Virus record (IMG/VR): IMGVR_UViG_3300041935_000004
Span: 1-62,739 of that record
DNA: 62,739 nt
Strand: one strand, 5' to 3'
Source of the DNA: a virus
Lineage: Duplodnaviria; Caudoviricetes
Shown here: positions 8,987 through 62,578 of the stretch, piece by piece
Layout of the letters: each line of letters opens with the position of its first letter
How positions within the stretch are numbered: position 1 is the first letter of the stretch
Made by a program: the position numbers and the translations under genes
Notes under the pieces: generated by a model
What the model was told of the DNA's origin: nothing
The model's database searches: none
What the model saw: only the letters and a program-made list of their open reading frames with translations

Positions 8987-9208
8987 GAGTTGCGAAGGGG
9001 TCAAATTCTGATACGCCTGCAACAGGCGGAGAAGGGGGGATGACGACGGAAAACCGCGCGGGAAAACGCGACTCGCCCGAACACTCCCGGGGCCATGACC
9101 TGCGACGATGTCACCAGACGATGACAGCGTGGGACGTCTCCACCGAGGTCTGCGCGTTTCCGCGTGTCGCCCTCTATGTCACGGTTCGCGGGGTTTACCC
9201 TCCCGTGC

Positions 9209-14352: not shown

Positions 14353-14359
14353 GACGTAC

Positions 14360-14600
14360 TTGCTCGCTCTCAAAACCGGAGTGGCGTGAACCCCGTACGC
14401 GTACTGGGGCCCAGCGAGCATAACAAAGATGCAGGTCAGAGCGGTCTTTAGGAGATCCAGTACATTTCCCATATAACCCAGTTTGACCTGCGGTTTTACG
14501 AAAGTGAAGATTGTGAATGTCGGAGTTATCCGGAGTTGTCATCAGCCGTTCGGACTAGTACGCAGCAGTTAGCCACCCAGTACGCGTACGCAGATTCTGT
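14360..14600. other. Probable attP region
   Basis: Non-coding, upstream of int; perfect 15-bp inverted repeat 14394-14408/14576-14590; GCAGGTCA/TGACCTGC pair; tandem CGGAGTTRTC repeats 14521-14540. Confidence 0.65.
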
Positions 14601-38094: not shown

Positions 38095-38136
38095 CGCGCC
38101 CCCTAAAAAAAGTCAATTCGCCCCAGGCTGGGGGCG

Positions 38137-38862
38137 TCAGACGTTCTGGACGCCGACCCAGAACGTCGGCGCGTACTGGGTTCCGTTCAGGCCCGCAGCA
38201 CTCGCATATGTCGGCGACAAGGCCGGCGGTGCAGCCGTCACCGTGTTCCAGGTGATCGACGTGTCCAGCATTCCGCCGATCCCGTTGCCGGTGAAGTACG
38301 CGGCGACAGTGGGGTTGCTCGGTAGCCGCATGCTGACGCTCATGAGGTTCGGTATCCGCATCGCTATCGTTGGATAGGCGGACGTCGTGTAGGCCCACGT
38401 CGCCATCCAATAGAGCGCCTGGCCGGAAAACGTTGTCGTGGCATCGAGCACCGTGGCTGTCGCCACCCCGGTCGCAGTCCCGGGGAAGCTCACCAAATCC
38501 GTGATTTTCGCGGACGGGAGCCCCGTGGACGCATCCGACGAATAGACCGACGTGTAGATCGTGGACCCTGCGCCGACCGCGTTCACGTAGCAGCGAGCGC
38601 CAGTGAATCGGCCAGGGCGGCTCATCATGAACGGCCAAATATAAGCCGTGCCGCTCGCCAGGGCAATGTAGCTGGACGAGAATACCGGGGGCTGATACCA
38701 GTAGTCGGCCGCCGCCGATGTGGACCATGAGTTGTCGATCATGAAACCGAAGGTTCCCGCACGCGGGGCCGTACCAGCGACGGCCGACAAACCACCGTCA
38801 GTCCCGAACGTGGCGCGGTTGTCACTGTCTGCGGAAATCCGCAGAGTAACGCCTACGGCCAT
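38137..38862 (-). CDS. Fibre paralogue 3
   Basis: ISADSDNRATFGTDGGL; IDNSW; LYWMATW. Confidence 0.75.
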   Translation of the reverse strand: MAVGVTLRISADSDNRATFGTDGGLSAVAGTAPRAGTFGFMIDNSWSTSAAADYWYQPPVFSSSYIALASGTAYIWPFMMSRPGRFTGARCYVNAVGAGSTIYTSVYSSDASTGLPSAKITDLVSFPGTATGVATATVLDATTTFSGQALYWMATWAYTTSAYPTIAMRIPNLMSVSMRLPSNPTVAAYFTGNGIGGMLDTSITWNTVTAAPPALSPTYASAAGLNGTQYAPTFWVGVQNV

Positions 38863-38874
38863 ACGATCGCCCCC

Positions 38875-39579
38875 TTAGACATTGGCGAATCCGAACCACA
38901 TCATGGGCAGCAGAGAGGTCGTCGAACCGCTCAAGGTAACCGTGGCGGGGGCGTTAGAAAGACTCGACCAATTCGCTGTCGTGTCGCTGGTACCGAAATA
39001 CGTAGTAGTGAAGTTCGACGCGGTCAACGTGGCCGCCCGGTAGGGGAAGCAGAACGAGGACGTTCTCGCGGTAACCGTGGCGGCGGCACCGTTGTACCAG
39101 GACGCCATCCAGTACAGCTTGTAGGCACTCAGAACCGTGGTGGTATCCCGCGCAGTCGCGGCCCGAACCCCGGTGGTCGCGCATTGGAAGTACAGCAGAT
39201 CGGCGACCTTGGCGCCCGGATTTCCGGTGGAAGGGTCAGAAGCGTACACCGAGTGGTAATACTGCGACCCGGCTGCCGCCGTGGTGACATTGATCGTGCC
39301 GCCCACGCACCGTGCATCCCGGGTGATCATCAGCGGCCACAACTGGCAGTTACCCAGCCCCGAATTCATCGTGGTGGTTCCGCCGGCCCCGCTGAGCGGG
39401 TAGTGATAGGGCGTCGAGGCCGTGCCCCAAGAATTATCGATCGCGTAGCTGAATACCCCGCCGCGCTGGTTGATTGCCGGCTGGGGGCAGAGCAACCCGC
39501 CGTCGGTCCCGAACGCGAGCGTGTTACCGCTGTCCGAAGACAGATTAATGGCGATGGTAGAACTCATCAACGCCCCCAT
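38875..39579 (-). CDS. Fibre paralogue 2
   Basis: LSSDSGNTLAFGTDGGL; IDNSW; LYWMASW. Confidence 0.75.
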   Translation of the reverse strand: MGALMSSTIAINLSSDSGNTLAFGTDGGLLCPQPAINQRGGVFSYAIDNSWGTASTPYHYPLSGAGGTTTMNSGLGNCQLWPLMITRDARCVGGTINVTTAAAGSQYYHSVYASDPSTGNPGAKVADLLYFQCATTGVRAATARDTTTVLSAYKLYWMASWYNGAAATVTARTSSFCFPYRAATLTASNFTTTYFGTSDTTANWSSLSNAPATVTLSGSTTSLLPMMWFGFANV

Positions 39580-40296
39580 TTAGACATTGGTGACCTGCCA
39601 CCAGATAAAAGGCATGCTCTGTGCGACGTTCACCGTGTTGGCAGTGTTCGGCGCGAGCGTTGCCGGCGCGGTGGTGAGACCGGCCCACGTGGTGGCCGGC
39701 TCCGGGAACCCGGCGTTCGCCCCGCCCGTGGTGAACTGCCCAACAGCGGTCGGGGGACCGTTCTGCCGGAGCGGGAACATCGAAGCGTTGAGCCGCGACG
39801 TCACCGACGGAACGGTGCCGTAGCTGTACCAGAACGCCATCCAATACAACGTCCGTCCGACGTAAACAGTCGCCGTGTCCCGCATTGTTGTCGCCGCCAC
39901 GGCGCCGGCCGCCGCGGAACTCCACTGGGCTTGATCCGCGATCTTCGCGGCGGGCATCCCCGTGACCGAGTTGGACGCGTACGTGGAGGCGTAAAGGTTG
40001 TAACTCCCACTTGCCGCAGTCACATTGACGCTCATCTGCTGCACCGTGCAGGACTTGGCGAACATGAAGGGAAACACGGACGCCGTGGCGCCGAAGATCA
40101 TGGTCGACGTGGACCCCGTCGCGAGGGTGTACCAGAATTGCTGCCCGGCACCGACCCACGAATTGTCCAGCGTGTACGCCGGATTGAGCCCGGCCATCGC
40201 CGAGTAGGGCGACCCCACATAGATGCCGCCATCCGCGCCGATCTTGGCGAGATTCCCGGCGTCCGTGGACGTCTTCGCGGAGAACACGTAAGGCAT
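39580..40296 (-). CDS. Fibre paralogue 1
   Basis: TSTDAGNLAKIGADGGI; LDNSW; LYWMAFW. Confidence 0.75.
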   Translation of the reverse strand: MPYVFSAKTSTDAGNLAKIGADGGIYVGSPYSAMAGLNPAYTLDNSWVGAGQQFWYTLATGSTSTMIFGATASVFPFMFAKSCTVQQMSVNVTAASGSYNLYASTYASNSVTGMPAAKIADQAQWSSAAAGAVAATTMRDTATVYVGRTLYWMAFWYSYGTVPSVTSRLNASMFPLRQNGPPTAVGQFTTGGANAGFPEPATTWAGLTTAPATLAPNTANTVNVAQSMPFIWWQVTNV

Positions 40297-40307
40297 TTAG
40301 TCCCCCG

Positions 40308-43300
40308 TCAGGACGTAGTCAGGGAGTAGAAGTAACGCGGGACGAACATGTATGGCGTCAACTGCGACGACGTCCACGAAATGGCCGCCGCCGATGTCGC
40401 GGTGCCAGCGTCGGCGCCGGAGTAGTAGATCGACGAAGAGCTGCTACCCAGGCCGCCGCTGGTCCACAAAGTGGGGTTGGCGTTAATCGTCGCGAGGGTC
40501 AGCGGCGGGGTGGGTATCCCCGCGTCGCGCTGGCTGGACAAGCCGCCCTGGGACGCGTTGGCCGACCAGCCGAGCAGCACCCAATACTGGGTGCCGGCCG
40601 TCAATGTCACGGACAGGCCGGTGATGGTCATCATCCCGGCGGCGTTGTAGTTGTACGACCCGAGGTAGCCGACCCGGACGAACTGCTGATTGGGGACGTC
40701 GATCGTGTAGAGGTTCACGTACCCGGTGACGTTCGTGTTGGGGCCGGTCACTGCGTTCAGCGACAACTGGGTCAGCGTGGCCGTCCTGGCGACTCCCAGC
40801 GGTGCCAGGATCGCCTGGCTGGCGGCGAGGGTGTTGGTCGACTGCTGAACTGTCGGCATGGGGTAGGCGTAGGAGCCGCTGACGTTCGGGATCGCGTACT
40901 GCCCGCCGCTGCTACCGGGCACGCTGACCACGTACGGCACGGCGGCGGTACCCGACCCGGTGATCGCGGCGTTGATCCCGGCGACAATCTTGGTTTCCGA
41001 ACCGTCGACGTTCGCCGAGCCGCTGACGGTCATGCCGTTTCCGGCGACGATGTTGTCTGTGGTGCCGTAGACGGTGACGGCGGTACCCGGACCGGCCGTG
41101 TACGTCCCGGTCGGAGTCGGGGCGACCGTGGCCGAGGTGGCGGCGTCAGTGATGTCGAAGACCGTCAGGAATTTCGGCGAAGCACCGCTGGTGTATTCCG
41201 ACCAGGTGAGGTTGGACTGCCAGCTGATCTTGACGGTGTAGACGCCGGTAGTGGCGCACGTGTAGGCCGGGCTTTGGCCTCGGGCGGTCACATAGCCGCT
41301 CGTCGTCGGCAGGCCGGTGCAACGGTCGAGGACGTTGCTGATCGTGGAGGTGGTGTCACCTGCACCGCTGGAAAGAGAGACGGTGATCTGGCCGAGGTTG
41401 CCGACGCTCGTGGTCAGGCCCTGTATCGACGAGCCGTAGGTGACGGCGTAGGTGCGTCCGGCCGTCATCGCCACGTTGATGCCGTACACGAAAGTCTCAG
41501 TGTTCGCCGCGACCGTCGCCGCGGAGTTGACGGTGCTGGACTTGCCCGAGGCCACGACGTACGCCCCGCCACCCGACCCACCGGTTCCGGCTGAGCCGTC
41601 GGCGCCCTTGGGGATGCCGAAGTTGAAGATCGCGGCGTTGCTGTTGCCGGTGTTGGTGACGGTCGCGGCTGAGCCGGCGGCCAGTGTCGTGGTGGTTCCC
41701 ACGGCGACGGTCGCGGCGGTTCCGGTGGCGCCGGCCGGCCCGGTGGCCCCGGTCGCGCCGGTGGTGCCCTGGGGTCCGGTGGAGCCAGCCGGGCCGGTCG
41801 CGCCGGTGTCGCCCTTGACGCCTTGGATGCCCTGGCTGCCGGTAGCCCCAGTGGCGCCCGTGGGTCCAGCGGTGCCAGTCGGTCCGGTCGCGCCCACAGG
41901 CCCCGTCGGTCCAGCTGCACCGTCGGCCCCGGTGGCGCCGGTGTCGCCCTTGGTGCCGGTGGGTCCGGCCGCGCCGGTCGCGCCAGTGTCGCCCTTGACC
42001 CCGGCCACACCTTGGATGCCTTGCGCCCCGGCGGTGCCGGTGTCGCCTTTGACGCCTTGGGCGCCCTGGGGTCCGACCGGCCCGGCCGGGCCTGCCGGGC
42101 CGATGTCGCCCTGGGGTCCGACCGCGCCGGTCGCCCCGGTGGCGCCGGTTGTTCCTGCTGCGCCGGTGGCGCCGGTGGGTCCTGCCGGGCCGGTCGCCCC
42201 GGCTACACCTGCGGTGCCGGGGTCGCCCTTGGGGCCGGGGTCGCCGGGATCGCCCTTGTCGCCCTTGGGGCCGGTCGCTCCGGTGGCGCCCACGCCCGCG
42301 TTGGACGCGGGCACCAGCAGCCCGCCGTCGGTGCCGAGTGCGGCGGCGTTCCCGGCGTCGGCCGAGAGTTTCACGTCGTACTTGCTGGAGGCGTATTTGA
42401 GTGTGGTCCCCAGCGCCCCGGTCACCGTGGTCAGGACGTCGGCGGAGCTGCCTGCGGCACCCGCCGGGCCGGTCGCCCCGGTGGGTCCGGCCGGTCCGGT
42501 GTCGCCGGTGTCGCCCTTGACGCCTTGGATGCCCTGGCTGCCGGTGTCGCCCTTGACGCCGGTGGCGCCGGTCGCTCCGGTGGGGCCGATGGCGCCTTGT
42601 GCTCCGGCCACGCCCGCGACGCCTTGCGGCCCGGTGAGACCGACGGGTCCTTGCGCGCCGGTCGTCCCGGCGGGTCCGGTCGCGCCGGTGGGGCCGGGTG
42701 TGCCTGCCGACCCGGTGGGGCCGGTCGCTCCTGCGGGTCCGGTCAGTCCGGTGTCGCCCTTGAGGCCCTGGGGGCCGGTGGATCCGGCCGGGCCGGTGGC
42801 GCCGAGCAGGCCTTGGGGTCCGATCGGGCCTTGCGCACCGGCCGGGCCGGTCGCCCCGGTGACCCCAGCGGTGCCGGTGTCGCCCTTGTCTCCCTTGTCG
42901 CCCTTCGGGCCTTGGGGACCTTGAACGCCGACGGTGTTGCCGTTGGAGTCCACGACGACCGACGGGACGTAGAGACCGTTGTCGCTGCCGTACTCGGCGC
43001 TGTTGTTCGCGTCCGAGGACAGCTTGACGAACAGCTGCCCGTTGGTGAATCCGAGACCGTTACCGGCGGCGTCTTCCAGGGACGCGCCCCCGCCGTCAGC
43101 CCCCAAGTCGGGCACGGTGGCCTGACCGGCGTCCAGCGCGACGTTGGCGGACACGGCCTTCATGTAGAGGCTGGTGACGCCCTCAGGCCCGTACACGTCG
43201 GGCATGTCGCCGCTGCGGTCCGAGCGGATCAGTGACCCGGGGATGACGCGTAGACCGTCGATGGTGCGGATGTCGGCCGGTGAATCGGTGTTCAGGTCGG

Positions 43301-43361
43301 TGTCGATCCGCACCTGCGTAAAGGGCGGAACGTCGGGCAGGCGGAAATACTTACGCGCCAC
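40308..43361 (-). CDS. Collagen-like fibre protein
   Basis: Two long Gly-X-Y tracts (GATGPAG, GDTG), beta-rich C-terminal domains. Confidence 0.9.
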
Positions 43362-48997: not shown

Positions 48998-49252
48998 ATG
49001 GCTGAGCCAAGCGGGGATTCGAAAAAGACGTACGCGCCGTTCGGATTCACCAACAGCGTGAGCCTGAACGCGTTTCAGGAAGCCGGCGTGGACGAGCCCT
49101 ACCGGTGCGGTAATGACCCGGCTCACATCCTGGTGGCCGACGTCGATGGTGGATGGCGCTGTCCGAAGTGGTTCTGCACTTACACCCAGGACTGGGCGTG
49201 GGTGGCCCATCTGGACTGGAACTGGTCGACGTACGGCCGGTCTACTTCTTGA
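48998..49252 (+). CDS. Counter-oriented Cys-containing hypothetical protein
   Basis: PYRCG...GWRCP..CTYTQDWA; TAAAGT 6 nt before the ATG. Confidence 0.65.
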   Translation: MAEPSGDSKKTYAPFGFTNSVSLNAFQEAGVDEPYRCGNDPAHILVADVDGGWRCPKWFCTYTQDWAWVAHLDWNWSTYGRSTS

Positions 49253-49625
49253 GCGCGTAGGGCTTGGCCTGCGTACGCATGTTCCACGCCTGGGCGTGCC
49301 CGCCCTTGACCAGCTGCTCGCCGACGTTTTCGCCGTTCTCGACCTTCCACACCTTCGCGTCGAACCGGCCGCCGTATTTATCGGTCTTGACGCTGTCCAC
49401 GATCAGGGCCGTGCCCGGCGGCAGGTACTTGGTCAGGAACGCCTTGGACGCCTGCCCGGCGGTGGTGTCCTTCTCCGGGGCGTCGATGCCGTTGATGCGG
49501 CAGCTCATCCGCACCCAGCAGAAGAAGCCGAGGTCGACATCCACCGCGAGGGTGTCTCCGTCGATGACGTACTGCACCGTGGCGTTGTACTGGTAGAAGA
49601 TCGCCGGCAAGGGCTTGGCGGCCAT
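49242..49625 (-). CDS. Thermonuclease (SNase-like)
   Basis: VIDGDT, DLGF, RINGIDAPE, DKYGGR. Confidence 0.9.
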   Translation of the reverse strand: MAAKPLPAIFYQYNATVQYVIDGDTLAVDVDLGFFCWVRMSCRINGIDAPEKDTTAGQASKAFLTKYLPPGTALIVDSVKTDKYGGRFDAKVWKVENGENVGEQLVKGGHAQAWNMRTQAKPYALKK

Positions 49626-49655
49626 AACCCCACCCCCGGACCTACTCTGCGTTAC

Positions 49656-49871
49656 ATGTTGATTTTGACGCGTAAGGCTGGCGAGGCTGTGATCATCAGT
49701 GACGAGACGGGCGAGGTGCGAATAGTCGTCGTGGAAGTGATGAGCGGTAACCAGGTGCGTCTGGGCTTCGAATGTGACGACGACGTGGATATCTTCCGGC
49801 AGGAAGTCTGGGACAAGCTCGGCGAACAGTCGCTCGCCGAAGCCCTGAAGAAATGCGAGCCCCCGCAATGA
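49656..49871 (+). CDS. csrA: Carbon storage regulator CsrA homologue
   Basis: MLILTRKAGEAVII...VRIVVVEV.GNQVRLGF...IFRQEV fits the CsrA/RsmA consensus. Confidence 0.88.
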   Translation: MLILTRKAGEAVIISDETGEVRIVVVEVMSGNQVRLGFECDDDVDIFRQEVWDKLGEQSLAEALKKCEPPQ

Positions 49872-50077
49872 CACCCGAGCAACTACAGACCCTCGCCGAC
49901 CAGATCCAGGCTCTCGCTGACGAAGCCGAAGCCGGATACGACGTGACCCGGCTGCGGCCTCGAATCACGTGCCCGACGTGCGGGCGCGTCTCCCACCACC
50001 CGAAAGACGTGGAGGAACGCTACTGCGGCAACTGCCACCAGTGGCATGACCTGATGGACAAGGGCGAGCCCCGATGA
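49868..50077 (+). CDS. Zinc-ribbon protein
   Basis: ITCPTCG.SHHP.D...YCGNCH. Confidence 0.7.
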   Translation: MTPEQLQTLADQIQALADEAEAGYDVTRLRPRITCPTCGRVSHHPKDVEERYCGNCHQWHDLMDKGEPR

Positions 50078-52917: not shown

Positions 52918-53183
52918 CAGGCCTTGGGCTTGCTCTCACCCGGGGCGTGACCGGGCCGGGCGCCGGTGGCTTTCACGTGAAGGTTGGAGCACAGCCCCTT
53001 GACGTCGATCGTGGCCGGCACGTGCTTACGCAGCTCCACGACGCACCGGTCGAAGTCCCCATCGGTGCCCCAGCGAATTTTTGCCGCTCCAGCGCCCTTG
53101 GTCCAGTAGGACATGAGCCGCTGCGTACTGGCGACTTCGCCGGGCGTCTTCTCGACCACCAAATCACCCCCAGGCGATTTCAA
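52917..53183 (-). CDS. Hypothetical phage protein (WGTDGDFDRC motif)
   Basis: YWTKG.GAAKIRWG..GDFDRC...GLCSNLH; start may be GTG 53159. Confidence 0.7.
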   Translation of the reverse strand: MKSPGGDLVVEKTPGEVASTQRLMSYWTKGAGAAKIRWGTDGDFDRCVVELRKHVPATIDVKGLCSNLHVKATGARPGHAPGESKPKA

Positions 53184-53386
53184 TTGTCAAGCCAACACGC
53201 CGAATGAGTTAGAAAACAAAACCTACCGATGCGTACGCATGTCCAGCGCCAGGACGGGGCGGCGCGCTGGCTGGGGCCGGTGGGGGGTATGCCCCACTAT
53301 GTCCGTTTTGTGGTGATACATGCGTTATCGCCGTGATCGATAAACGGAGGATCGTTCCGCTTGCACGGAACCCACCGGCGACGGCG

Positions 53387-53593
53387 GATGCACGTGCAGA
53401 TGCACGTGATGGCGGGTGCACGTGCAGATGCACGTGAGGCAGCGTGTGCAAGTCAACCCGAGATATTGGACCGAGTCAAGTATGCACGTCCAGATGCACG
53501 TGCAGATGCACGTGCGTATGCACAATCGCTTCCGGCTTCGCTGGCTAGCCGAGTGAGCCCGCTCCAATGAGTGCACGTGCATATGCATATGAA
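53387..53593. repeat. Array of ~10 12-bp units GATGCACGTGCA
   Basis: Units begin at 53387, 53399, 53415, 53427, 53481, 53493, 53505, 53517, 53570, 53582; palindromic core TGCACGTGCA. Confidence 0.9.
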
Positions 53594-54607
53594 TTCAGCA
53601 CTCATTGTTGAATTGATATCGCTACATATTTGTGCTCACACCAAAGTTGCACAAAGTGTAGTTTTATTTTCTAGGACATGCGTTCTAAAAGCAGCTGCCA
53701 GGCAAGCGGCCCCAGATAGGCCCCCCGAAGGCCCATACCAGGGAATATGGGCAAAACGGACACGGGCTCAAGTTGGCATACCCCATAGGGGTACCAAAAT
53801 AGGACACAACGGACACGATTCAGCGTCCGTTCAATGCGTTATTGAGCGGTATGTCCGTTTCTCCCTCTGCGCTTGACCTGCGGAAACGGCACTCAGACGG
53901 CCGCTAGCGGCCTAACCCCCCGCCGGGGTGGAATCGGATGGGACGGCCACCGCTCGGCCGCGTGCGTGGATCAGACCCCTGTTTACGCGTGCCATATGGC
54001 GGGGGTATCTGGCACACCCACCAGCGACCCGGCGAAACCGGCCGATCAGCCCCCCTGAAATAGATCCACCCTAGGGTGTAGGCGGCTCATCTGTGAGCGA
54101 AATACTGTTTGGCGTGTTGGGCCGAACGGAACGGGCCGGAGCGAGAGACCAGGCAACCCGATCCACGTAGGCGCAGAAGTACAGGCGACGTCCTAGCGGG
54201 CCGGTCCTGGCAGCGCACGCACCTTGAGAACTCAATACTGATGCTGACCTCACCGCTGGCAAGACTCATTGCTAGATCGGGCACCGGCCGTCATGCGCAA
54301 TAGCAAACGCGCTAGCCGGGTATGGGCGATAACCAGAGACTGCACTTTGGAGTGCTCCCGATCGACGCGATTACCAGCGCGGTATGACACCAGTAGACGA
54401 AAGACACCCTAGACATTCTCTCCGACCCGATCGGGTCGACTTAGGACACCTAGATGGGTCCTACCCATGGTGCCGACCCTGCCCTATCACTGGACACCGG
54501 CACGCATGACGTAGCTCCCATCGCCTAGTCCTAGGCCGATACCGATCGGGTCGGCGGAGTGTGCCTACGGCACCCCCACGTACCCCACTCACAGCAAGGA
54601 GACTTCT

Positions 54608-54934
54608 ATGCCCACCTATCGCGTACGGGTCAACGCCTACAACGACTGGCACCCGGAATACGGGTGTGTGCAAGTAGTCCTGCGTGTCAACGGCCGGTGT
54701 CTCGACGACGCCATGCGAACCCTAACCAACGGCATTGTCATGACGTCCGACGGTCGGACCGTCATGGCCTCACGCGAAAACCACAAGGGACTAGGCCCGA
54801 CCGCCATCGGTTTCCCGTCATGGTCGCTGGCCTGTCGTCCGCGCATTGTGACCGGTGATCGTCCGGCCTACGTGGCGGAGCACGTGGCAGCTCATCCGCA
54901 CTATCGCCGCACTATCGCCAGTATCGCCCGATAG
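54608..54934 (+). CDS. Early hypothetical protein
   Basis: AAGGAG RBS. Confidence 0.7.
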   Translation: MPTYRVRVNAYNDWHPEYGCVQVVLRVNGRCLDDAMRTLTNGIVMTSDGRTVMASRENHKGLGPTAIGFPSWSLACRPRIVTGDRPAYVAEHVAAHPHYRRTIASIAR

Positions 54935-54946
54935 GAGCAACCAACA

Positions 54947-55120
54947 ATGACCGTTGAAATTGAGATTCGCCCGACCGGCATCTTTCTGGCCGGTACCGAC
55001 GTAGCCGTCCCGTGTCAGTGGTTCGCACGCTGCGACCGGAACGCCACAACCATCACCCCTCACCCGGTACTCGGCGATGTGCCGACGTGCCAGCGGTGCG
55101 CAGACCTCGCCACGAATTGA
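54947..55120 (+). CDS. 57-aa Cys-containing protein (not in ORF track)
   Basis: AGGAG RBS; CQWFARC...HPVLGDVPTCQRC. Confidence 0.7.
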   Translation: MTVEIEIRPTGIFLAGTDVAVPCQWFARCDRNATTITPHPVLGDVPTCQRCADLATN

Positions 55121-55336
55121 ATGGGAGCCGAAATGATGAACCGTGAGGAAGAGCGCCGCGCGTTCCATGTCATTAACGACGCGAACCCGGACGGCTGGGA
55201 GTACCAGGAACCGACGGACGCCGATCGTGACGCGTTCCGCCGGTGGGCGCTGGAGCGCTACGGCCGTGCTACGTGGGACCTGTACCGGTCGGGTGGGATG
55301 AATAAGCCGTACGACCCTTACAACTCCGCTGTCTGA
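55121..55336 (+). CDS. Early hypothetical protein
   Basis: GGAG RBS (start probably 55133); ends in the GTCTGAC motif. Confidence 0.65.
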   Translation: MGAEMMNREEERRAFHVINDANPDGWEYQEPTDADRDAFRRWALERYGRATWDLYRSGGMNKPYDPYNSAV

Positions 55337-55351
55337 CGTTAGGAGCAACTC

Positions 55352-55645
55352 ATGCCGACCCCCCTTGACCGTAAGGAAGAACTCGCACTCCAGTACCGAA
55401 AGTTAGCCGACCGCTTATCAGAATCGGATGCTCGGACCGTCGACTTCCTCCGTGGGCAGGCAGTGTCCTATGTGTGGGGTCGGCAGGATGCCGGGGAGTC
55501 GGGACGCGATACCGCCTATTCCAACATGTTCGGTTACGCCTACGGCATTCAAGCCGCACGGTTCGTATTAGGTGAGATCGGCACGCGGACGACGATCGAA
55601 AATGCGTTCCTGTCGTTTCGGAACTACGGCGCGGTAGCGAACTGA
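55352..55645 (+). CDS. Early hypothetical protein (YVWGRQDAG)
   Basis: AGGAG RBS. Confidence 0.7.
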   Translation: MPTPLDRKEELALQYRKLADRLSESDARTVDFLRGQAVSYVWGRQDAGESGRDTAYSNMFGYAYGIQAARFVLGEIGTRTTIENAFLSFRNYGAVAN

Positions 55646-55682
55646 CGTCCCCCCTCACTGCCCCCTATCGATCGGAGTAACC

Positions 55683-55877
55683 GTGTCCACCGTGCACCGA
55701 CCCTTTTACCGGTTTGACGTCGAGTCCCTTGCGGACATGACGGATGGGGAAGTTCTAACCGCAATCGAGACTATCGAGTCGTGGCAGAGTGCCCACCCCC
55801 ATGATCGGACGCTCGACAGCGCGTGGCGCACGCTGCGCAATGAGCACGACTACCGCACCTTCCGGCGCAACGTCTGA
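55683..55877 (+). CDS. Early hypothetical protein
   Basis: GGAG RBS; ends FRRNV. Confidence 0.65.
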   Translation: MSTVHRPFYRFDVESLADMTDGEVLTAIETIESWQSAHPHDRTLDSAWRTLRNEHDYRTFRRNV

Positions 55878-55908
55878 CATCCCCCCAACGCCTAAAACTG
55901 GAGACGAA

Positions 55909-56124
55909 ATGACAACCGTTACGCGAATCCGCGACTGGGCCACCGGTTACACCCGCCTAGGCCGCAACGACGCGGTAATCGTCCGCCACGATAACGGCCG
56001 TGCGGTCCGGTTTGAATTCGATTCCGACGATGACTACATCTACGTCTACACGTACCGCTGGCTGTCGAGCGGGATGATTCGCGAGTCACAGGACCCGGTG
56101 CGCGCCTTCCGGCGCAACGTCTGA
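55909..56124 (+). CDS. Early hypothetical protein
   Basis: GGAG RBS; ends FRRNV. Confidence 0.65.
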   Translation: MTTVTRIRDWATGYTRLGRNDAVIVRHDNGRAVRFEFDSDDDYIYVYTYRWLSSGMIRESQDPVRAFRRNV

Positions 56125-56212
56125 CGTCCCCTACTGGCAAGCGTAGTCGCGGGGACCACGTATGCCGGTATAGGGCATCAGCCCGACCTACCCCTAAACG
56201 ATCGGAGTGACC

Positions 56213-56461
56213 GTGTCCGTGCTTGCTGCCAATCGTGCCCACTATGCCCTTGACGCTTACCGCGAGGTCGCAGAATCTCCCGGCTTGTCACAGGAGGAAG
56301 CCGCAACCGATCTTTTGGCCGATCTACTTCACCTGATCAGTATCAACCCGACGGATTTTGACGCTGCCATCGACACCGACCCGTTCGACGTGTTGGCGTT
56401 CCTGGTACGCCGCGCGTCGATGCACTTTAACGCTGAGTACGCCACCGACGGCGCGGTCTGA
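56213..56461 (+). CDS. Early hypothetical protein (DLLADLLHL)
   Basis: GGAG RBS; DLLADLLH...RA.MHF.AE pattern. Confidence 0.7.
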   Translation: MSVLAANRAHYALDAYREVAESPGLSQEEAATDLLADLLHLISINPTDFDAAIDTDPFDVLAFLVRRASMHFNAEYATDGAV

Positions 56462-56545
56462 CGCGTACCTAACCGACCGACCCGGCAGGCTTTACCACCC
56501 TGTCGGCGCACGAACCCTTGACCCACATTCCAGATTGGATTCATC

Positions 56546-57562
56546 ATGTCTCGCGAAACCATGACTTGGCTGAACACGAACACTCTCATTGGCTTCACTG
56601 AGAAGCGCGGCAATGCCTGGCACTACCGGGCCGACTCGCAGGGTGACGAGCCGAACCACTACACCGGCGCGATCCCGGCCGATGACGTCATCCGCCGACT
56701 GTTCGCATGGAACGCCATCAGCGTCCCCATCTACGTGAACGTTCCCGACTTCGGCATGATGCCGGTGGATGGTCGGCAGGCGATTGCCCGTGACGACTCC
56801 TACGCGGTGATGGGCATGTTCAAGGAGGGCTACACCATGCACCAGTACCGGGAAACCCTCATCGACAATATGGCCAACATCATCGACACGTCGAGTGGTG
56901 ACCTCGGCATCGGGTCGGCCGGTTTGCTGCGCAACGGTGCGCAGGCGTGGGTCTCAATCGAGGTGCCGGACAACATCGTGACGCCAGAGGGTGTCGAGTT
57001 CCGGCCGCATCTGTTGGCGTGCACCTCGCACGACGGTTCGCTGGCCACCACGTATAAGCGCGTGGTGACCAATGTGGTCTGTGACAACACCATGGCCGCC
57101 GGACTGGCCGAACAGGGGCAGGCGTACCGAATCAAGCATTCCAAGTACAGCAAGCTCAAGCTGAACGATGCACGGGACGCGTTAGCGATCGTTCACACCA
57201 TTGGGGACGACTTTGCGGCGGAGGTAGCGGAGTTGTGCGCGATCGACGTCAGCAACAAGGCGTGGTCGGAGTTCTTGAACGCGCACTCGCCGGTACCGGA
57301 GACGGCCGGACGGTCGCTCACCATGGCGCTGAACACCCGCGAGTCGCTCACGCAGCTCTGGAACTCCGACATCCGGGTGTCGCCGTGGCGGAACACGGCG
57401 TGGGGCGTTGTTCAGGCAGTCAACACGTACGAACACCACACCAAGACGGTCCGGGGCGCGACCCGTCCGGAACGCAACATGACCCGTGCGCTCACCGGTG
57501 GCGTGGACACTCTCGACACCGACACCATGTCGACGCTGCGAAAGGTTCTGGCCAGTGCCTGA
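56546..57562 (+). CDS. DUF932 family phage/plasmid protein
   Basis: AWH, SAGLL..G, TSHDGS, VVCDNT, KH, TAWG..QAVN. Confidence 0.88.
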   Translation: MSRETMTWLNTNTLIGFTEKRGNAWHYRADSQGDEPNHYTGAIPADDVIRRLFAWNAISVPIYVNVPDFGMMPVDGRQAIARDDSYAVMGMFKEGYTMHQYRETLIDNMANIIDTSSGDLGIGSAGLLRNGAQAWVSIEVPDNIVTPEGVEFRPHLLACTSHDGSLATTYKRVVTNVVCDNTMAAGLAEQGQAYRIKHSKYSKLKLNDARDALAIVHTIGDDFAAEVAELCAIDVSNKAWSEFLNAHSPVPETAGRSLTMALNTRESLTQLWNSDIRVSPWRNTAWGVVQAVNTYEHHTKTVRGATRPERNMTRALTGGVDTLDTDTMSTLRKVLASA

Positions 57563-57707
57563 AACTGAATCCGACCGGTGCGACCGCTGCGGTGCGACCG
57601 ACGGCAGAGCCGTTCATGTCGACTACACCGCCAGGCATGGCTTTGAAGGTCTATGCGATCCATGTCTAGACGAACTTGCCAACCGACCTAAGCACCAGAA
57701 CGTCTGA
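57555..57707 (+). CDS. Small zinc-finger protein
   Basis: CDRC...LCDPC; ends NV in the repeat motif. Confidence 0.55.
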   Translation: MPETESDRCDRCGATDGRAVHVDYTARHGFEGLCDPCLDELANRPKHQNV

Positions 57708-57810
57708 CGTCGCTTTAGCGGCCGTCGGTCACTCACCCCTACCGGTGATGCCCGACGGTCGGCTATGGCCACGTCGGGCCGCTTTCCCCTACCCCTGAAG
57801 GGAGTGGCAA

Positions 57811-57996
57811 ATGAAACACATTGAAGCGCTCGGAATCGGTGGCACCGAACGGATGCTCCGTTTTCTCCTAAACCGGATGGACCTAGAGACGCGCCGCGCT
57901 CTGATGGGGACGCTTCCGGCCGACTACATGCGGCTCTACCCGTCGGTGACGTTCGAGACGATCGCCTCCGCCGTGCGAGAGGAAGCCGCACGATGA
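57811..57996 (+). CDS. Hypothetical protein
   Basis: GGGAG RBS. Confidence 0.65.
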   Translation: MKHIEALGIGGTERMLRFLLNRMDLETRRALMGTLPADYMRLYPSVTFETIASAVREEAAR

Positions 57997-58193
57997 CGGC
58001 TTGGAACGGGGGGGACGCCGAAAAGAAGAACCCCTACAACCACGACGCGCGTCCGAGCGACGACGCCGAACCCGGCGACCACTGCAAAGACTGCGGTGAG
58101 GGCATCACGTGGATGGGACCGACGGCCGTCGAGTCGATCACCGATCCCGGCTATCACGTCGACTGGCTTCACTCCAACGACCCCCGCAACTAA
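57993..58193 (+). CDS. Hypothetical protein (HCKDCG)
   Basis: ATGA coupling. Confidence 0.65.
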   Translation: MTAWNGGDAEKKNPYNHDARPSDDAEPGDHCKDCGEGITWMGPTAVESITDPGYHVDWLHSNDPRN

Positions 58194-58215
58194 CCAACTT
58201 CGGATTGGATTGACC

Positions 58216-58554
58216 ATGACGACGCCTGACTTGAGCACCCTGACGTTCACCGTGGATCACTCGCTGACGTCCTACCAATTCGCTGACGTGCTAGCGACGC
58301 TCGTCCCGTTCGTTGACGATTCCCCGTGGCCGGAGGGTTTCAGCCGCACCACGATTATCGCGCGGGTTCGGGACGCAGTTAGAGACTGGGGCGTGACAGG
58401 CGCGGGAATGACTGAGGATGACGACTGGCCGGGTGCCTACGGGTCGGCGCCTGCCGTTCGTGCGGTGGAGTTGATCCGGGAATTCTTGCCCGAGTTGGAC
58501 AATGCCCACCTTGCCGAATTCGAGCAGACCATGCGCGAACAGGGCAAGGAATGA
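58216..58554 (+). CDS. Hypothetical protein
   Basis: ORF in array. Confidence 0.6.
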   Translation: MTTPDLSTLTFTVDHSLTSYQFADVLATLVPFVDDSPWPEGFSRTTIIARVRDAVRDWGVTGAGMTEDDDWPGAYGSAPAVRAVELIREFLPELDNAHLAEFEQTMREQGKE

Positions 58555-58790
58555 GCGCCACGTACCGGGTGCGATGGAGCACCGTCACTACCGAGTCGCA
58601 TGAGGCGACATTGAGCGCCGATGAGCTTCTCGCCCTGGCATCAAAGTTCGACGGCTCACCGGTCGCTCTGGCGGACGTCGTCGCCTATCCGGAGGACTTC
58701 AATTTGGACAACGAACTCGCGCAAGTGGAAAGCGCCGGAACGTTGGACGAGTTCAACCGGTTCGACATCACCATAGAGGAAACCTCATGA
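58551..58790 (+). CDS. Acidic hypothetical protein
   Basis: ATGA coupling. Confidence 0.65.
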   Translation: MSATYRVRWSTVTTESHEATLSADELLALASKFDGSPVALADVVAYPEDFNLDNELAQVESAGTLDEFNRFDITIEETS

Positions 58791-58886
58791 AGCTCATCGT
58801 TCTAGGCCCGAACCTACCCACTAGTACTGCCGGAAGTGCCAGCAAGTGCTTTGCGTCCCCGTTTCCTACCTGAGGAAGGCTTGACC

Positions 58887-59228
58887 ATGACCAACCTGTT
58901 CCCGGTGAAGCCGCTCACCCCCGGCGCCCCGATCATGTGGCGCCACACGGCGGGGCACGGCGAGACCGAACTGACCCGCACCGGCGTCATCTGGTCACTG
59001 GCCCCGCTCATCAGTGGCACCACCACCTTTTGGGTCACCCCGGACGAACCGTTAATGACCGACCTGTACTCCGCCATCGCGGTGAACGTGCCGAGGAAGC
59101 GGCGGGGCGGGCCGGTGCCGGTACCAGAGTCCTCGGACCACCCCGAGAGCGCCACTGGCAGCATGACGGCCGGTGCTGCCCGCGCGGCCCGTAACGTCCG
59201 CGTCTTCCAGAAAGGACTAGCAGCATGA
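58887..59228 (+). CDS. Hypothetical protein
   Basis: GAAGG RBS. Confidence 0.6.
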   Translation: MTNLFPVKPLTPGAPIMWRHTAGHGETELTRTGVIWSLAPLISGTTTFWVTPDEPLMTDLYSAIAVNVPRKRRGGPVPVPESSDHPESATGSMTAGAARAARNVRVFQKGLAA

Positions 59229-59446
59229 CTGATCAGACGTGGGGCGTGATGGGGCGTGACGCATTCATGACCCGGTTCCAGTGGATGACCCAGCAAGGCG
59301 CCATGACCCCTCACCGGGATCAGGCGTACACGGTCACCGGGCCGGACGCCAGGCAACGGGCGGAACGCCTGGCTCGACTGACCGCCGAGGCTTACCCGTA
59401 TTCGATCGAAACCAAGGCCCAACGCTTCACCACCAGAAAGGATTAG
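59225..59446 (+). CDS. Hypothetical protein
   Basis: ATGA coupling. Confidence 0.6.
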   Translation: MTDQTWGVMGRDAFMTRFQWMTQQGAMTPHRDQAYTVTGPDARQRAERLARLTAEAYPYSIETKAQRFTTRKD

Positions 59447-59451
59447 CAAGC

Positions 59452-59901
59452 ATGACCCCCGATGAAGCTTATGAAACGCTCGTCAAGCGGATGACCGGCG
59501 ACGGCGCCGACCCGATAGCCCGCGCCGCGTGGCAGGCCCTTGACGACGCGCTCAAGGGTGACGCGGACCTACCGGAGCCGTGGCTGCGGTTGACGGGGAC
59601 GTCCGCCGCGACCCGCGCCGGCCGTGACCCTCAGCAGTGGGCGAACCTGGTGAGTCAGGGCTACGCCCCGCCACCGGACGGGCGCGATGACGTGGGCCGT
59701 GCCTGGTGGCATCCAGCGACGGCGGACGCGTTCAAGGCCCACGGCTGGACCAGGCCGCGCGCACCCGGAACCCCGCCGGCGTTTAATGCCAGCCGGGAGA
59801 AGTGGATTCAGTTCGCGCTGGAGTGCGGCGGGGTCACGTACCCGCATCAGCGCCGAGACCAGATCATCGCGCTGTGCCGGGAGAACGGGTGGTTGTCGTG
59901 A
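59452..59901 (+). CDS. Hypothetical protein
   Basis: AAAGGA RBS; WQALDDAL..G..LPEPW. Confidence 0.65.
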   Translation: MTPDEAYETLVKRMTGDGADPIARAAWQALDDALKGDADLPEPWLRLTGTSAATRAGRDPQQWANLVSQGYAPPPDGRDDVGRAWWHPATADAFKAHGWTRPRAPGTPPAFNASREKWIQFALECGGVTYPHQRRDQIIALCRENGWLS

Positions 59902-60215
59902 ACTACACCGGCCGTCAGATCGACATCATGATCGAACTACTGGACGCGCAACCGTCGATGCTTCCGCTGGATGCGATGGCGGAAGCGGGCAGGCTGGAAC
60001 GCAAGGGACGCGGCGCGGTGTTCCGCCGGTGGTTCCCGTGGTGGGCGTGGGTTTTACACGCCGGTGGTGTCGCCGCGACGCAAGGCGCCTGGATCGTGGC
60101 GGTGCTGATCCACTTCACCTACGCCCGGTACCGCGTCCACCACTGGACGCACGGGGTCACCGGCCGGATCCCGCCTTCGCGACCACCACCAGGACGACGC
60201 CGATCCCGGCGATAG
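59898..60215 (+). CDS. Possible membrane protein
   Basis: GTGA coupling; hydrophobic segments. Confidence 0.5.
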   Translation: MNYTGRQIDIMIELLDAQPSMLPLDAMAEAGRLERKGRGAVFRRWFPWWAWVLHAGGVAATQGAWIVAVLIHFTYARYRVHHWTHGVTGRIPPSRPPPGRRRSRR

Positions 60216-60403
60216 GCCACAACGTCGCCTGCCAGGCCACCCACCGGGCTTTGCGCAGGCGACGTTCCTTGGCCCGCTGGTCGGCGTGGTCGGTCCACGC
60301 GGCGACCGCGCCCCGGCAGTGCCAGCCGGCCAGGTACGTGATGATCATCCCCATCACGACGAGAACCCCCACAACCCCCACCCCCAGAACGGAACCTAGA
60401 CCA

Positions 60404-60730
60404 ATGGCTAAGCCCAGCGTCACTCGCCAACCCACGACCGGCGACACCTCCGTGTTCGAATTCCGCAACGGCGCGCGGACCGCCGAAACTCTGCAAGGCG
60501 GGCTGTTGGAACTACGGCCGCAGGAAGACGGAACGCTGCGAGTCGACCTGTACCGGCTGGACCCGCGCGTAATCGTCAACGTGTCGGCGGACCCAGGCAA
60601 TGAACACGGGTCGGCGTTACAAGTGATCAGCCGGGCAATGGTCGCTGCCCGCAACGAGAACCCGGATGCGACCGAAGTCGACTACCTGAAAGCCGCTATC
60701 AACGCCGCGATGCTAGCTCTGCACTCCTGA
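60404..60730 (+). CDS. Hypothetical protein
   Basis: MAKPSVTRQ...; protein-like composition. Confidence 0.6.
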   Translation: MAKPSVTRQPTTGDTSVFEFRNGARTAETLQGGLLELRPQEDGTLRVDLYRLDPRVIVNVSADPGNEHGSALQVISRAMVAARNENPDATEVDYLKAAINAAMLALHS

Positions 60731-60765
60731 CCCCCCCCCCCCACCCCCACAACCGGAGCTAGACC

Positions 60766-60996
60766 ACGCCCAGCCCCCCCCCGGACGCTGATATTGAGTA
60801 CAACGGCACGCGCACGCCAGTCAGTTACGACGCGTTCGTCCACTTCCACCAGCCCAACGGCGCGACCCTCACGATCGACATCGACGGGGATTACGTCCAC
60901 ATCAGGGCCACCGACAGCCGGGGGCGCAAAACCGGCCTGGTTGTCACGCCGCAGGCTTTCGATGAGGTCACCGTCGGCGGGGACGTGACCGCATGA
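60766..60996 (+). CDS. 76-aa ORF with ACG at the expected start position (not in ORF track)
   Basis: GGAG-7 nt-ACG; reads ...DIEYNGTRTPVSYDAFVHF...; stop overlaps the next ATG. Confidence 0.5.
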   Translation, partial: TPSPPPDADIEYNGTRTPVSYDAFVHFHQPNGATLTIDIDGDYVHIRATDSRGRKTGLVVTPQAFDEVTVGGDVTA

Positions 60997-61205
60997 GCGA
61001 GGAATACCCCGGCGAGGTCACGATCCGCCGCACCGACAACGCCGCAGACGTCGCTTGCGAAGCCCTTGACCGGTGCCCCGAACCGGTCGCGTTCGCCCTG
61101 TGCCTGGTGGTGGACGATTACATCGCCAGTGACGACGTGACCGTGTGCGCTCACCCACGTGGGATGGGCAGTGGACCTGATGAGCAGCGAGCCGTTCCGC
61201 AGTGA
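60993..61205 (+). CDS. Hypothetical protein
   Basis: ATGA coupling. Confidence 0.5.
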   Translation: MSEEYPGEVTIRRTDNAADVACEALDRCPEPVAFALCLVVDDYIASDDVTVCAHPRGMGSGPDEQRAVPQ

Positions 61206-61217
61206 AGGAGCGTTGAC

Positions 61218-61384
61218 GTGAGCACCACCAACGCCGGATGCGTGGACGCGTGACCGGCGTCAACGCCTCGGCGATCAGCTACGTACTTCAGAAACGGCAC
61301 TAGGCTCTCGCGACGGCGGCCGTCATCTTCGGGTGCGCCGTTCAGGATCTGGTCGACGCCTACGAATTGCGGCTGACGCCCTAG
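61218..61384 (+). pseudogene. Degenerate XRE-type HTH gene
   Basis: AAGGAG RBS; frame from 61238 reads TGVNASAISYV...H*ALA...FGCAVQDL with TAG at 61301. Confidence 0.45.
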
Positions 61385-61563
61385 GCCGGCGGGGCCGGCG
61401 CGATCGCGACGATGTCTTCCACGGCCCAGCGCGTCACCCAGGAACGGCCGATGCGGACCCGGCCCAGTGGTTCGATGCGGTTGGCCCGCGCGTAGGCCGG
61501 TAGCTGGCGCGGGTCCATGTCGAGCAGGTACGCAGCCTCGGTGGAGTTCACTACTCGTTTCAT
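61381..61563 (-). CDS. Small HTH DNA-binding protein
   Basis: VNSTEAAYLLDMDPRQLPAYAR. Confidence 0.65.
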   Translation of the reverse strand: MKRVVNSTEAAYLLDMDPRQLPAYARANRIEPLGRVRIGRSWVTRWAVEDIVAIAPAPPA

Positions 61564-61577
61564 GAAAGGTTCCCCCC

Positions 61578-61874
61578 ATGACGTTGGAAGAGCGCGTGGC
61601 CGCGTTAGAGGCCCAGGTACAGGAGATCAAGCACACTCACGCCGCGCGGGTGGACGCCTTCGCCGCCGCGCAGCATCACCTTTATGAACAACTCCTAGCC
61701 TTCCAGAGCAGAACGCTTGACCTGTTCGGTGACGTCACCGACCGGTTCGACCGGGTCGATGAGCGTTTCGCAGCCGTGGATGAGCGCTTCGCCGAGGTCC
61801 GCGATGAGCTGGGCGATGTCAAGTCGACGTTGCTGGTCATCCTCGACCGGCTCCCCCGGCCCCCCGCTCCCTGA
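61578..61874 (+). CDS. Coiled-coil protein with heptad repeats (counter-oriented)
   Basis: DRFDRVDERFAAVDERFAEV. Confidence 0.65.
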   Translation: MTLEERVAALEAQVQEIKHTHAARVDAFAAAQHHLYEQLLAFQSRTLDLFGDVTDRFDRVDERFAAVDERFAEVRDELGDVKSTLLVILDRLPRPPAP

Positions 61875-61876
61875 CC

Positions 61877-62578
61877 TCACGCCCCGACTTCCGTCTCCTG
61901 ATGACGGCGTAGCCACAGGAAGTATTTGCGGTCCCACAGCGACCCGCAGTCCCGGCATCGGACGGAGTCGTCCAGGACGGGGTCGGCCCACAGTTCGTTG
62001 CCGCAGGCCAGCCCGGGTTCCCACTGTTTGGGGCATGGCCCCAGCATGACCTTGTGGGCGTTGTACCCGCACGCGCCCCACGCCTTGGCCCGCACGTCCT
62101 GTATCGCCCCGACGATGTGGGCGAGTTCGTCCGGGTCGGCCTTCGCGGCGTAGCGGTCCAGCCAGGCTTTGACGAATGTGGCGTCACGTTCAATGCCGGT
62201 GCGGGTGTCGCGGCGTTGGTGCCCGTGCATCTCGGCCGGTAGGTCGCACACGTCGCGGATGGTCTGGCGGGTGATCCACAGGACGGTGGCGATGGATAGT
62301 TGCCCGTGCTGGTCGGCCCCGGCGATCAGCCCGACCTGTGCCGGCCCCCGGAGACTGGCGATGTCCACGCGCAGGGGCAGCGGCGGGGTGCGGCTTCCCC
62401 CGACCCGTTGCTGTTCGCCTGCTTTGCCGGGCATGAGGACCGCGGCGAGGGTGCCCCACAGTTCGGGCAGGTCCGCGACGTCGGCGACGGTTCGCCCGGC
62501 GCAGCGTCCGCACCAGCCGGGCAGGTCGGTCCCGTCGCGGGAGGCCCAGCCGCAGATGCCGCAGTGACGGGCGTTCAC
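61877..62578 (-). CDS. Cys-rich phage protein, possible late transcription regulator
   Basis: CxxC pairs at both ends, SRTPPLP; end of the replication operon; function is inference. Confidence 0.65.
   Translation of the reverse strand: MNARHCGICGWASRDGTDLPGWCGRCAGRTVADVADLPELWGTLAAVLMPGKAGEQQRVGGSRTPPLPLRVDIASLRGPAQVGLIAGADQHGQLSIATVLWITRQTIRDVCDLPAEMHGHQRRDTRTGIERDATFVKAWLDRYAAKADPDELAHIVGAIQDVRAKAWGACGYNAHKVMLGPCPKQWEPGLACGNELWADPVLDDSVRCRDCGSLWDRKYFLWLRRHQETEVGA

Follow-up and report, generated by a model that had tools for sequence, protein, structure and literature searches.

A stop-codon-linked sequence box at six gene junctions of an actinophage-type virus genome

The gene block and its stop boxes

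The DNA analysed here (the window) comes from an uncultured soil phage and is the whole IMG/VR virus record IMGVR_UViG_3300041935_000004, 62,739 bases long with a completeness rating of 84%, and we describe a short sequence, hereafter the stop box, which is repeated at six neighbouring gene ends and contains the stop codon of each gene. Scans against PHROG and Pfam families revealed a siphovirus-like layout of the temperate actinophage type on the - strand, with HNH and terminase genes (50.2-52.9 kb) followed by portal, protease, capsid, tail genes, a 2,125-amino-acid (aa) tape measure, endolysin, a tyrosine integrase (13117-14472), exonuclease, primase/polymerase and RusA. The relatives of the terminase and of a DUF932 protein were actinobacterial phages and prophages, with identities below 60-65%. 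The stop boxes lie in the sole large + strand block of the genome, which comprises about 20 small genes (54608-61874) and is separated from the divergent terminase side by a 1.4-kb non-coding stretch (53184-54607). The first-pass annotation called these genes early, as they presumably are.

All six sites listed in the first-pass annotation were recovered: GTCTGACGT at 55331, CTGACGTC at 55642, ACGTCTGACAT at 55870, ACGTCTGACGT at 56117, GTCTGACGC at 56456 and ACGTCTGACGT(C) at 57700. At each of them the TGA is the stop codon of a + strand open reading frame (ORF; Table 1), and the six genes are found among seven consecutive ones (55121-57707), the exception being the 338-aa DUF932 gene at 56546-57562. 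Five of the proteins end with Val, as had been noted, and the sixth with Asn. In its fullest form the box reads (AAC)GTC-TGA-CGT(C), and only C-TGA-C-R-Y is common to all six sites. The stop-holding frame of the 11-mer is one of three, and it is this frame that all six sites use. The palindrome ACGTC-T-GACGT, by which the sites were originally defined, is perfect in its 5-1-5 symmetry at two sites, 56117 and 57700, and off by one base at 55870; elsewhere it does not hold, and at three sites the left half fits at one to three of its five positions. Likewise the run of C described after several sites is present at three (55643, 55875 and 56122) and missing at the other three.

At least four of the six box-ending genes have support as real genes. 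The 97-aa gene has 107 homologues, the 71-aa gene ending at stop box 4 has five, the 82-aa gene has a phrog_3963 match and a homologue in the metagenomic contig L130, and the 50-aa gene, with a CxxC...CxxC pattern, shows a weak match to DUF7685; a homologue search with this gene returned none. The orphan 64-aa gene found only itself in such a search. The block proteins are mutually not paralogues, and the ends of their homologues vary. In the 71-aa family the five homologues keep P-V-R-x-F-R-R and then continue with SELPA, SA, GSQA, A or ATRAD in place of the NV of the window, and the C-terminal tails of the 97-aa family vary as well. Among the homologues compared, the NV-stop tail thus appears specific to this genome. 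As the homologue tails are variable and the block proteins are not paralogous, the common ends point to selection on the nucleotides and not on the protein.

Genome-wide the motif is not enriched. Allowing up to two mismatches the 11-mer was found 16 times against 24.07 expected, GTCTGACG five times against 3.87 and GTCTGAC eight times against 10.22. At the gene ends of the block the picture is a different one, as GTC-TGA-C is found at 5 of 7 ends there vs 1 of 74 elsewhere (Fisher 4.8e-6) and TGA-C at 6 of 7 vs 15 of 74 (p 0.00097), while GTC is the final codon of 5 of 7 block genes vs 5 of 74 others. We computed the expectation from the codon, stop and post-stop usage of the 81 genes of this genome. 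The model expects 0.57 GTC-TGA-C ends in 81 genes and gives a probability of 3.4e-10 for at least five in seven, or 2.6e-8 after correction for 75 window positions. Around the DUF932 genes of 80 bacterial genomes (800,335 bases) GTCTGAC was found 25 times on the + and 24 times on the - strand, which is about 0.075 per 2.4 kb and strand vs five here. One stop heptamer repeated five times was seen in two of 403 locus-strands, namely the window and locus L138, where the heptamer CGATGAC comes from an ATGA overlap of start and stop.

It could be argued that the sites result from chance and composition, since in a GC-rich genome GTC is frequent among Val codons, TGA among stops and C among the bases that follow. 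TGA indeed ends 53 of the 81 genes, GTC makes up 3.4% of the codons, the word is not enriched over the genome, and the one look-alike site in the structural region is explained by an NV tail conserved in three paralogues. We nevertheless consider this very improbable, as the model leaves the observed number of ends far outside its expectation and the same repeat count was seen in only 1 of 402 comparator locus-strands, with a trivial cause there. Chance falls far short of explaining the six-site pattern, and we regard the feature as real and its statistical support as strong. The look-alike itself is probably coincidental, because the two paralogues of its 241-aa gene also end with NV and yet stop at TAA. 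These genes belong to a stretch (38137-43361, - strand) with a 1,017-aa collagen-like tail-fibre gene and then three paralogous genes of 234-241 aa (33% identity, NV ends), which lies, unusually for fibre genes, between those for the capsid and the head-tail adaptor.

The core of the box is also a word in its own right. When k-mers in 54600-58600 were ranked against the sense strand of the remaining genome, one word family came out on top, with TGACGT found 11 times vs 1.59 expected, TGACGTC seven times vs 0.32, CTGACGTC four times vs 0.04 and GTCTGAC five times vs 0.18. With Markov models fitted to the block, 2.1-2.5, 0.7-0.8 and 0.47 copies of TGACGT, TGACGTC and GTCTGAC, respectively, would be expected, and the observed counts were reached in none of 1000 simulations. 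The reverse complement ACGTCA was found twice vs 1.6-1.9 expected and is not enriched, and over 54.5-61.9 kb TGACGT occurs 16 times on the + strand vs three on the - strand. The maximum per 4 kb in 412 comparator locus-strands was eight.

The stop codon in the in-frame core, CUGACGUC, means that in-frame copies are possible at gene ends only, and the seven TGACGT copies inside genes (Table 1) are accordingly in frame 1 (four copies) or frame 2 (three copies). Shuffling the codons within genes gave an expectation of 1.24 such copies, and seven were reached in 0 of 2000 shuffles. The confinement to gene boundaries that the first-pass annotation had built on thus holds in part, since 7 of the 11 block copies of TGACGT are away from boundaries; the left extension GTC is found at stops only and at none of the in-gene copies. 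One in-gene copy encodes Asp-Asp-Val in the DUF932 protein and may be incidental. CTGACGT is densest at 58239-58290, with three copies within 45 nucleotides (nt) at spacings of 24 and 19 nt, inside a 112-aa gene (58216-58554). Taken together, CUGACGUC appears to be a sense-strand word under selection at the nucleotide level.

Table 1. Stop boxes, core words, repeats and hairpins in the window
Feature	Position	Strand	Remarks
Stop box 1 (CTGTCTGACGT)	55329..55339	+	TGA 55334-55336 ends 71-aa (or 67-aa) gene 55121-55336, tail ...SAV; start-associated sequence directly after
Stop box 2 (AACTGACGTCC)	55640..55650	+	TGA 55643-55645 ends 97-aa gene 55352-55645, tail ...VAN; without GTC codon; then C-tract
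Stop box 3 (ACGTCTGACAT)	55870..55880	+	TGA 55875-55877 ends 64-aa orphan gene 55683-55877, tail ...FRRNV; then C-tract
Stop box 4 (ACGTCTGACGT, perfect palindrome)	56117..56127	+	TGA 56122-56124 ends 71-aa gene 55909-56124, tail ...FRRNV
Stop box 5 (CGGTCTGACGC)	56454..56464	+	TGA 56459-56461 ends 82-aa gene 56213-56461, tail ...GAV
Stop box 6 (ACGTCTGACGT, perfect palindrome)	57700..57710	+	TGA 57705-57707 ends 50-aa CxxC...CxxC gene 57555-57707, tail ...QNV
Look-alike site	38134..38144	-	ends 241-aa structural-region gene: ...QNV, TGA, CGCCCCC
In-gene TGACGT copies (n=7)	54741, 55715, 56683, 57947, 58241, 58265, 58284	+	frames 1 and 2
Start-associated sequence CGWTMGGAG(YRAC), copy 1 of 4	54929..54941	+	TAG stop of upstream gene inside motif
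Start-associated sequence, copies 2-4	start 55337, 55669, 56199	+	1-5 nt ahead of start codon (all four copies)
61-nt hairpin	56121..56181	+	CUGACGUC of stop box 4 forms the 5' foot; stop CUGA paired to UCAG
8-bp-stem hairpin	56482..56506	+	20 nt past stop box 5; then promoter-like TTGACC-18-CATCAT
74-nt hairpin	57704..57777	+	CUGACGU of stop box 6 forms the 5' foot; fragment -61 kcal/mol, z -4.6, reached in 0/200 shuffles
31-nt boundary repeat D6, copy a	55854..55884	+	last 8 codons, stop and C-run of 64-aa gene; 94% identical to copy b
31-nt boundary repeat D6, copy b	56101..56131	+	native end of 71-aa gene
31-nt boundary repeat D7, copy a	55658..55688	+	C-tract, start-associated sequence, GTG start, second codon
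31-nt boundary repeat D7, copy b	56188..56218	+	84% identical to copy a

Relatives and layout of the junctions

A protein search with DUF932 collected 43 viral, 80 genomic and 80 metagenomic loci, with best identities of 59%, 65% (69% over a partial match) and 73%, respectively, and the stop box was absent from all of them. The nearest relatives found are the metagenomic contigs L129, L130 and L131, at 73, 71 and 69% identity in DUF932. Searches of the region against 50,697 phage records with megablast and blastn gave no close relative, or covered 3-4% of the query inside the DUF932 gene. An exact 16-mer scan of IMG/VR returned three unrelated matches (GC 0.53-0.59), none at a gene end, and no IMG/VR locus was matched with the alignment of the 71-aa family. 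Some other DUF932 neighbourhoods from IMG/VR have repeated words of their own, namely CGTTATACTC four times in L004, AAAGGATCAGC 11-12 times in L036 and AGTACACACAGAGAGAG five to six times in L037, which suggests that lineage-specific junction or promoter motifs may be common in this phage group.

Downstream of the stop boxes the junctions hold further elements. A start-associated sequence, CGWTMGGAG(YRAC), occurs on the + strand only, and C-rich tracts are frequent, with CCCCTA found six times in 54600-58600 vs 0.39 expected. These two elements are common to the window and to L129 and L130. Both contigs have a strong start-associated sequence, ...GATCGATAGGAGAAATGA.CATG, with C-rich repeats ahead of it; the latter (tandem CCCTGCC, at 2160-3205 in L130 and 2110-2900 in L129) begin directly past the upstream stop codon. 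In L130 we counted CCCTGCCC 13 times vs 0.36 expected and ATAGGAGA four times vs 0.02. Further along the block of the window, a 347-aa ORF (59687-60745) has a low-complexity, Arg/Pro-rich translation and is overlapped by a 165-aa ORF on the opposite strand; directly past its TGA follow a run of 13 C and more C-runs, and its coding status is doubtful.

The spacers after sites 1-3 are 15, 37 and 31 nt long and without significant fold. Large hairpins follow stop boxes 4 and 6, each with its 5' foot in the box (Table 1), and a smaller one lies past stop box 5. The hairpin at stop box 4 is conserved in L129 and L130, and the pairing of CUGA with UCAG is kept in three of three (the window and the two contigs). 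A covariance model (R1) scores it at 48 bits; when run over 100 of 208 loci, R1 matched only the window, L129 and L130, along with a weaker second hairpin type in the two contigs, and it gave no match to the second large hairpin of the window. A promoter scan returned two promoter-like matches vs 1.9 expected, none of them at a stop box, and a terminator scan found no terminator-like site on the + strand. There were no Rfam matches at gathering score, and a transfer RNA scan gave none either.

Two direct repeats lie at gene boundaries. The non-homologous 64-aa and 71-aa genes have a common end patch, D6, whose copies lie 247 nt apart and flank the 71-aa gene; in a separate comparison they matched over 27 nt at 96% (E 1.9e-7). 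The D7 pair flanks a 530-nt segment with two genes (64 aa and 71 aa). Homologues of four block genes were found in the nearest relatives, two of them on the opposite side of DUF932 relative to the window. Further, one gene of L129 is replaced by two others in L130, and the homology between the contigs stops at the stop codon and resumes at the start-associated sequence. In one DNA run, from which the contig may derive, no excised, variant or joined forms were seen.

What the box may do

Our tentative reading is that one lineage-specific stop box, (AAC)GTC-UGA-CGU(C), is present in copies at all six sites and possibly, though short of probably, acts as a signal on the RNA in a modular gene junction. 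Such a junction would begin with the stop box, in some cases followed by a large hairpin, and continue with a C-rich tract (CCCCTA...), the start-associated sequence CGAT(A/C)GGAG.. and the start codon. We favour a role on the RNA because of the strict sense bias, the span of the motif from the last codon across the stop to the third base after it, and the hairpin foot or C-tract downstream. A ribosome holds just this stretch when it terminates, and in Escherichia coli UGA with a C after it is a weak context for termination. The box would act on the polycistronic mRNA, where the UGA of its core doubles as stop codon. A ribosome terminating on GUC-UGA-C would cover the first bases downstream; at two junctions these form the hairpin foot, and two or three others have a C-rich, G-poor tract there. 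We infer that translation of one cassette might in this way gate folding, processing or termination ahead of the next. The common box could also supply homology for cassette swapping.

A more specific version is a dedicated mRNA punctuation, in which either a ribosome terminating on GUC-UGA-CGU or a phage RNA-binding protein or nuclease recognising CUGACGUC would decide on expression of the next cassette, by covering or exposing a stop-anchored hairpin or C-rich tract. We hold it to be unlikely in this form.

Several observations weigh against a signal read on the RNA. The sample is small, with six sites. No terminating ribosome can read the in-gene copies, which call for an explanation of their own, and the dyad symmetry of the best sites would better suit a DNA-binding dimer. 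It should be noted that the in-gene enrichment depends on a motif predefined from the stop sites; in a blind k-mer ranking the top word of the block has a p-value of about 4e-6, not more extreme than the top words of several comparator loci. The distance from stop to next start ranges from 15 to 103 nt, a spread that makes a single fixed translational mechanism unlikely. Hairpins are found at two of six junctions, or three counting the weaker one, and folds at sites 1, 2, 3 and 5 were no better than shuffles (z +0.24 to +0.88). Finally, the closest relatives found (L129, L130 and L131) are without the stop box, hence there is no comparative support for a function.

The first-pass annotation had offered two explanations, of which one was an operator or roadblock. 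The boxes would then be DNA sites for a phage regulator, similar to stoperators, and the bound protein would block the elongating RNA polymerase and silence the block, for instance in lysogeny. The 5-1-5 dyad symmetry at 56117 and 57700, and with one mismatch at 55870, is in line with this, as are the single orientation relative to transcription, the confinement to one block directed inward from a long non-coding region, and the presence of sites both at gene ends and within genes. The virus is also temperate-like, having a tyrosine integrase and excisionase-type helix-turn-helix (HTH) proteins. However, nothing would oblige a DNA site to keep to a single frame relative to the stop codon at each of the six gene ends. 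Neither the 11-mer nor GTCTGACG nor GTCTGAC is enriched over the genome, the common core is just 6-8 bp, the in-gene copies lack the palindrome, and at three sites the left half fits at only 1-3 of its 5 positions. Family scans recognised no repressor family and found excisionase/HTH_17-type proteins and one PHROG annotated as 'DNA binding protein'. What stands of the operator proposal is thus the sense-strand bias and the confinement to the block; it loses on genome-wide enrichment and on the palindrome, and we consider it unlikely. Moreover, a far clearer operator- or iteron-like array lies at 53380-53600, in the non-coding stretch that separates the terminase side from the + strand block. 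There, at least five copies of a 12-nt unit hold the 10-bp palindrome TGCACGTGCA, and the repeat families D1, D2 and D8 have three to five copies each, many of them overlapping. This array is a candidate operator, iteron or packaging-protein site.

The other proposal saw crossover sites of a shuffling cassette array. In a looser form the boxes would be recombination linkers or scars, functionless in themselves and carried from one gene end to another when cassettes are exchanged by homologous or short-patch recombination. The D6 patch fits this well, as the native end of the 71-aa gene recurs as a 31-nt copy (94%), 247 nt away, at the end of the unrelated orphan 64-aa gene, and so do the second 31-nt repeat (84%) around 530 nt with two genes, the homologues of block genes at other positions in L129 and L130, and the replacement breakpoints of these contigs at the stop codon and the start-associated sequence. 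On the other hand, passive scars should decay evenly, yet four sites keep only an 8-13-nt core, and the in-gene enrichment of this core points to selection on the word itself. There is no relative with the box, the one DNA run held no variant or joined forms, and no dedicated recombinase is present. Of the crossover proposal the looser gene-swap joints (boundary repeats, displaced homologues and the L129/L130 breakpoints) gain support and the integron-like site-specific system does not. The motif probably marks joints between swappable genes, and a linker may well exist alongside a function; as the whole explanation it seems to us somewhat unlikely.

A number of other candidates were rejected. 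For an integron-like system, the sole integrase is an ordinary tyrosine recombinase (PF00589) whose best NCBIfam row, archaeal XerA, scores 21.6 bits vs a cut-off of 220, and four of six junctions are 15-37 nt long or without an attC-sized inverted repeat, the large hairpins being found after sites 4 and 6 only. By inspection, no partner box at the correct spacing was seen for an ECF-type (extracytoplasmic function) or sigma-70 promoter, and readthrough into the next gene fails as the frames do not match. A match to the reported cleavage preference of mycobacterial RNase E holds too little information to count. Coupling of termination and reinitiation was set aside because the spacers of 15-103 nt are rather long for it; this process requires very short distances (PMC10666635).

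Some further observations concern the surroundings. An AT-rich patch (53590-53700) lies just past the palindrome array, where the rest of the genome is 61-68% GC, and ORFs at 53113-54509 have low-complexity translations and are probably not genes. The relative L036 has arrays comparable to the palindrome array, with ATGCGTGCATAC about five times and TATGTACATAG about six times. HTH proteins of the phage are encoded at 8663-9022, 12942-13133 and 61880-62578, and small zinc-ribbon-like ones at 54947-55120, 57555-57707 and 57993-58193. Between the portal and terminase genes there is a staphylococcal-nuclease-like gene (49242-49874, - strand; Pfam SNase, PHROG endonuclease).

Comparison with known junction motifs

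In integrons, the stop codon of a cassette often lies within the first bases of the recombination site attC. The two junctions of the window with imperfect hairpins of 61-74 nt beginning at the stop resemble this arrangement; the window differs in having no integron-type integrase, and four of its junctions are without such a hairpin. Further, the 3' feet of the hairpins lack what we take to be the integron core.

Cluster A stoperators are tens of copies of one asymmetric site found genome-wide, oriented with transcription and served by a cognate immunity repressor. Like these, the stop box is oriented with transcription and occurs at gene ends and within genes of a temperate actinophage unit. 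Unlike them, it is not enriched genome-wide, is confined to about 4-7 kb, has a far shorter core and no cognate repressor that could be recognised. Stoperators of Cluster A mycobacteriophages such as L5 are named in PMC3203893.

In T4-type phages, PeSL (promoter-early stem-loop) cassettes have repeated stem-loop junctions between small non-essential genes, and recombination shuffles the genes (PMC2839356), a process that the linker reading would parallel. Each PeSL junction combines a strong sigma-70-like promoter with a terminator stem-loop, and recombination between copies yields indels and mini-circles. The repeated stem-loop junctions are a likeness to the window, where direct repeats flank single genes; as differences, no sigma-70-like promoter was detected at the junctions of the window and hairpins are found at three of six.

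Closer to the present case are the start-associated sequence (SAS) and extended start-associated sequence (ESAS) of Cluster K mycobacteriophages and the motifs of Cluster EF Microbacterium phages, which are short, cluster-specific and single-oriented, lie at gene junctions of non-structural genes, sometimes include the upstream stop codon and are of unknown function (PMC3203893, PMC7302621). The Cluster K SAS is a 13-bp motif with AGGAG a few bases ahead of start codons in one orientation, and the ESAS consists of two imperfect 17-bp inverted repeats, separated by 4-13 bp and placed directly before the SAS (PMC3203893). As a short, lineage-specific motif in one orientation at junctions of non-structural genes the stop box resembles the Cluster K and EF motifs. 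By the definition of SAS, however, it is the separate CGWTMGGAG motif of the window (four copies, + strand only, 1-5 nt before starts) that fits and not the stop box, and this motif and the Cluster K consensus have GATAGGAG in common. The stop box differs from SAS in its position at the stop codon instead of the ribosome-binding site, 15-103 nt from the next start, and in having copies inside genes, too; from ESAS it differs in being at most a 5-1-5 palindrome and in abutting the SAS at site 1 only.

As a variant of the known actinophage junction motifs the stop-locked box is new; in a limited library, which was without the relevant supplementary figures, we found no description of a stop-codon-locked motif when searching the literature for the word and for stop-linked phage motifs. 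Most of the cluster-specific junction motifs of actinophages (stoperators, SAS/ESAS and others) are without known function, and the six joints with their core of 6-8 nt offer a compact, testable system in which action on RNA, on DNA or in recombination could be told apart for such motifs. Should the box be a recombination linker only, it would still be a clear small case of orphan genes gaining borrowed ends. The stop-locked motif together with the start-associated sequence and the stop-anchored hairpins would show signals at both ends of a cassette. If the dedicated punctuation is true, the box could be named a 'stop-associated sequence', the counterpart of the start-associated sequences of actinophages.

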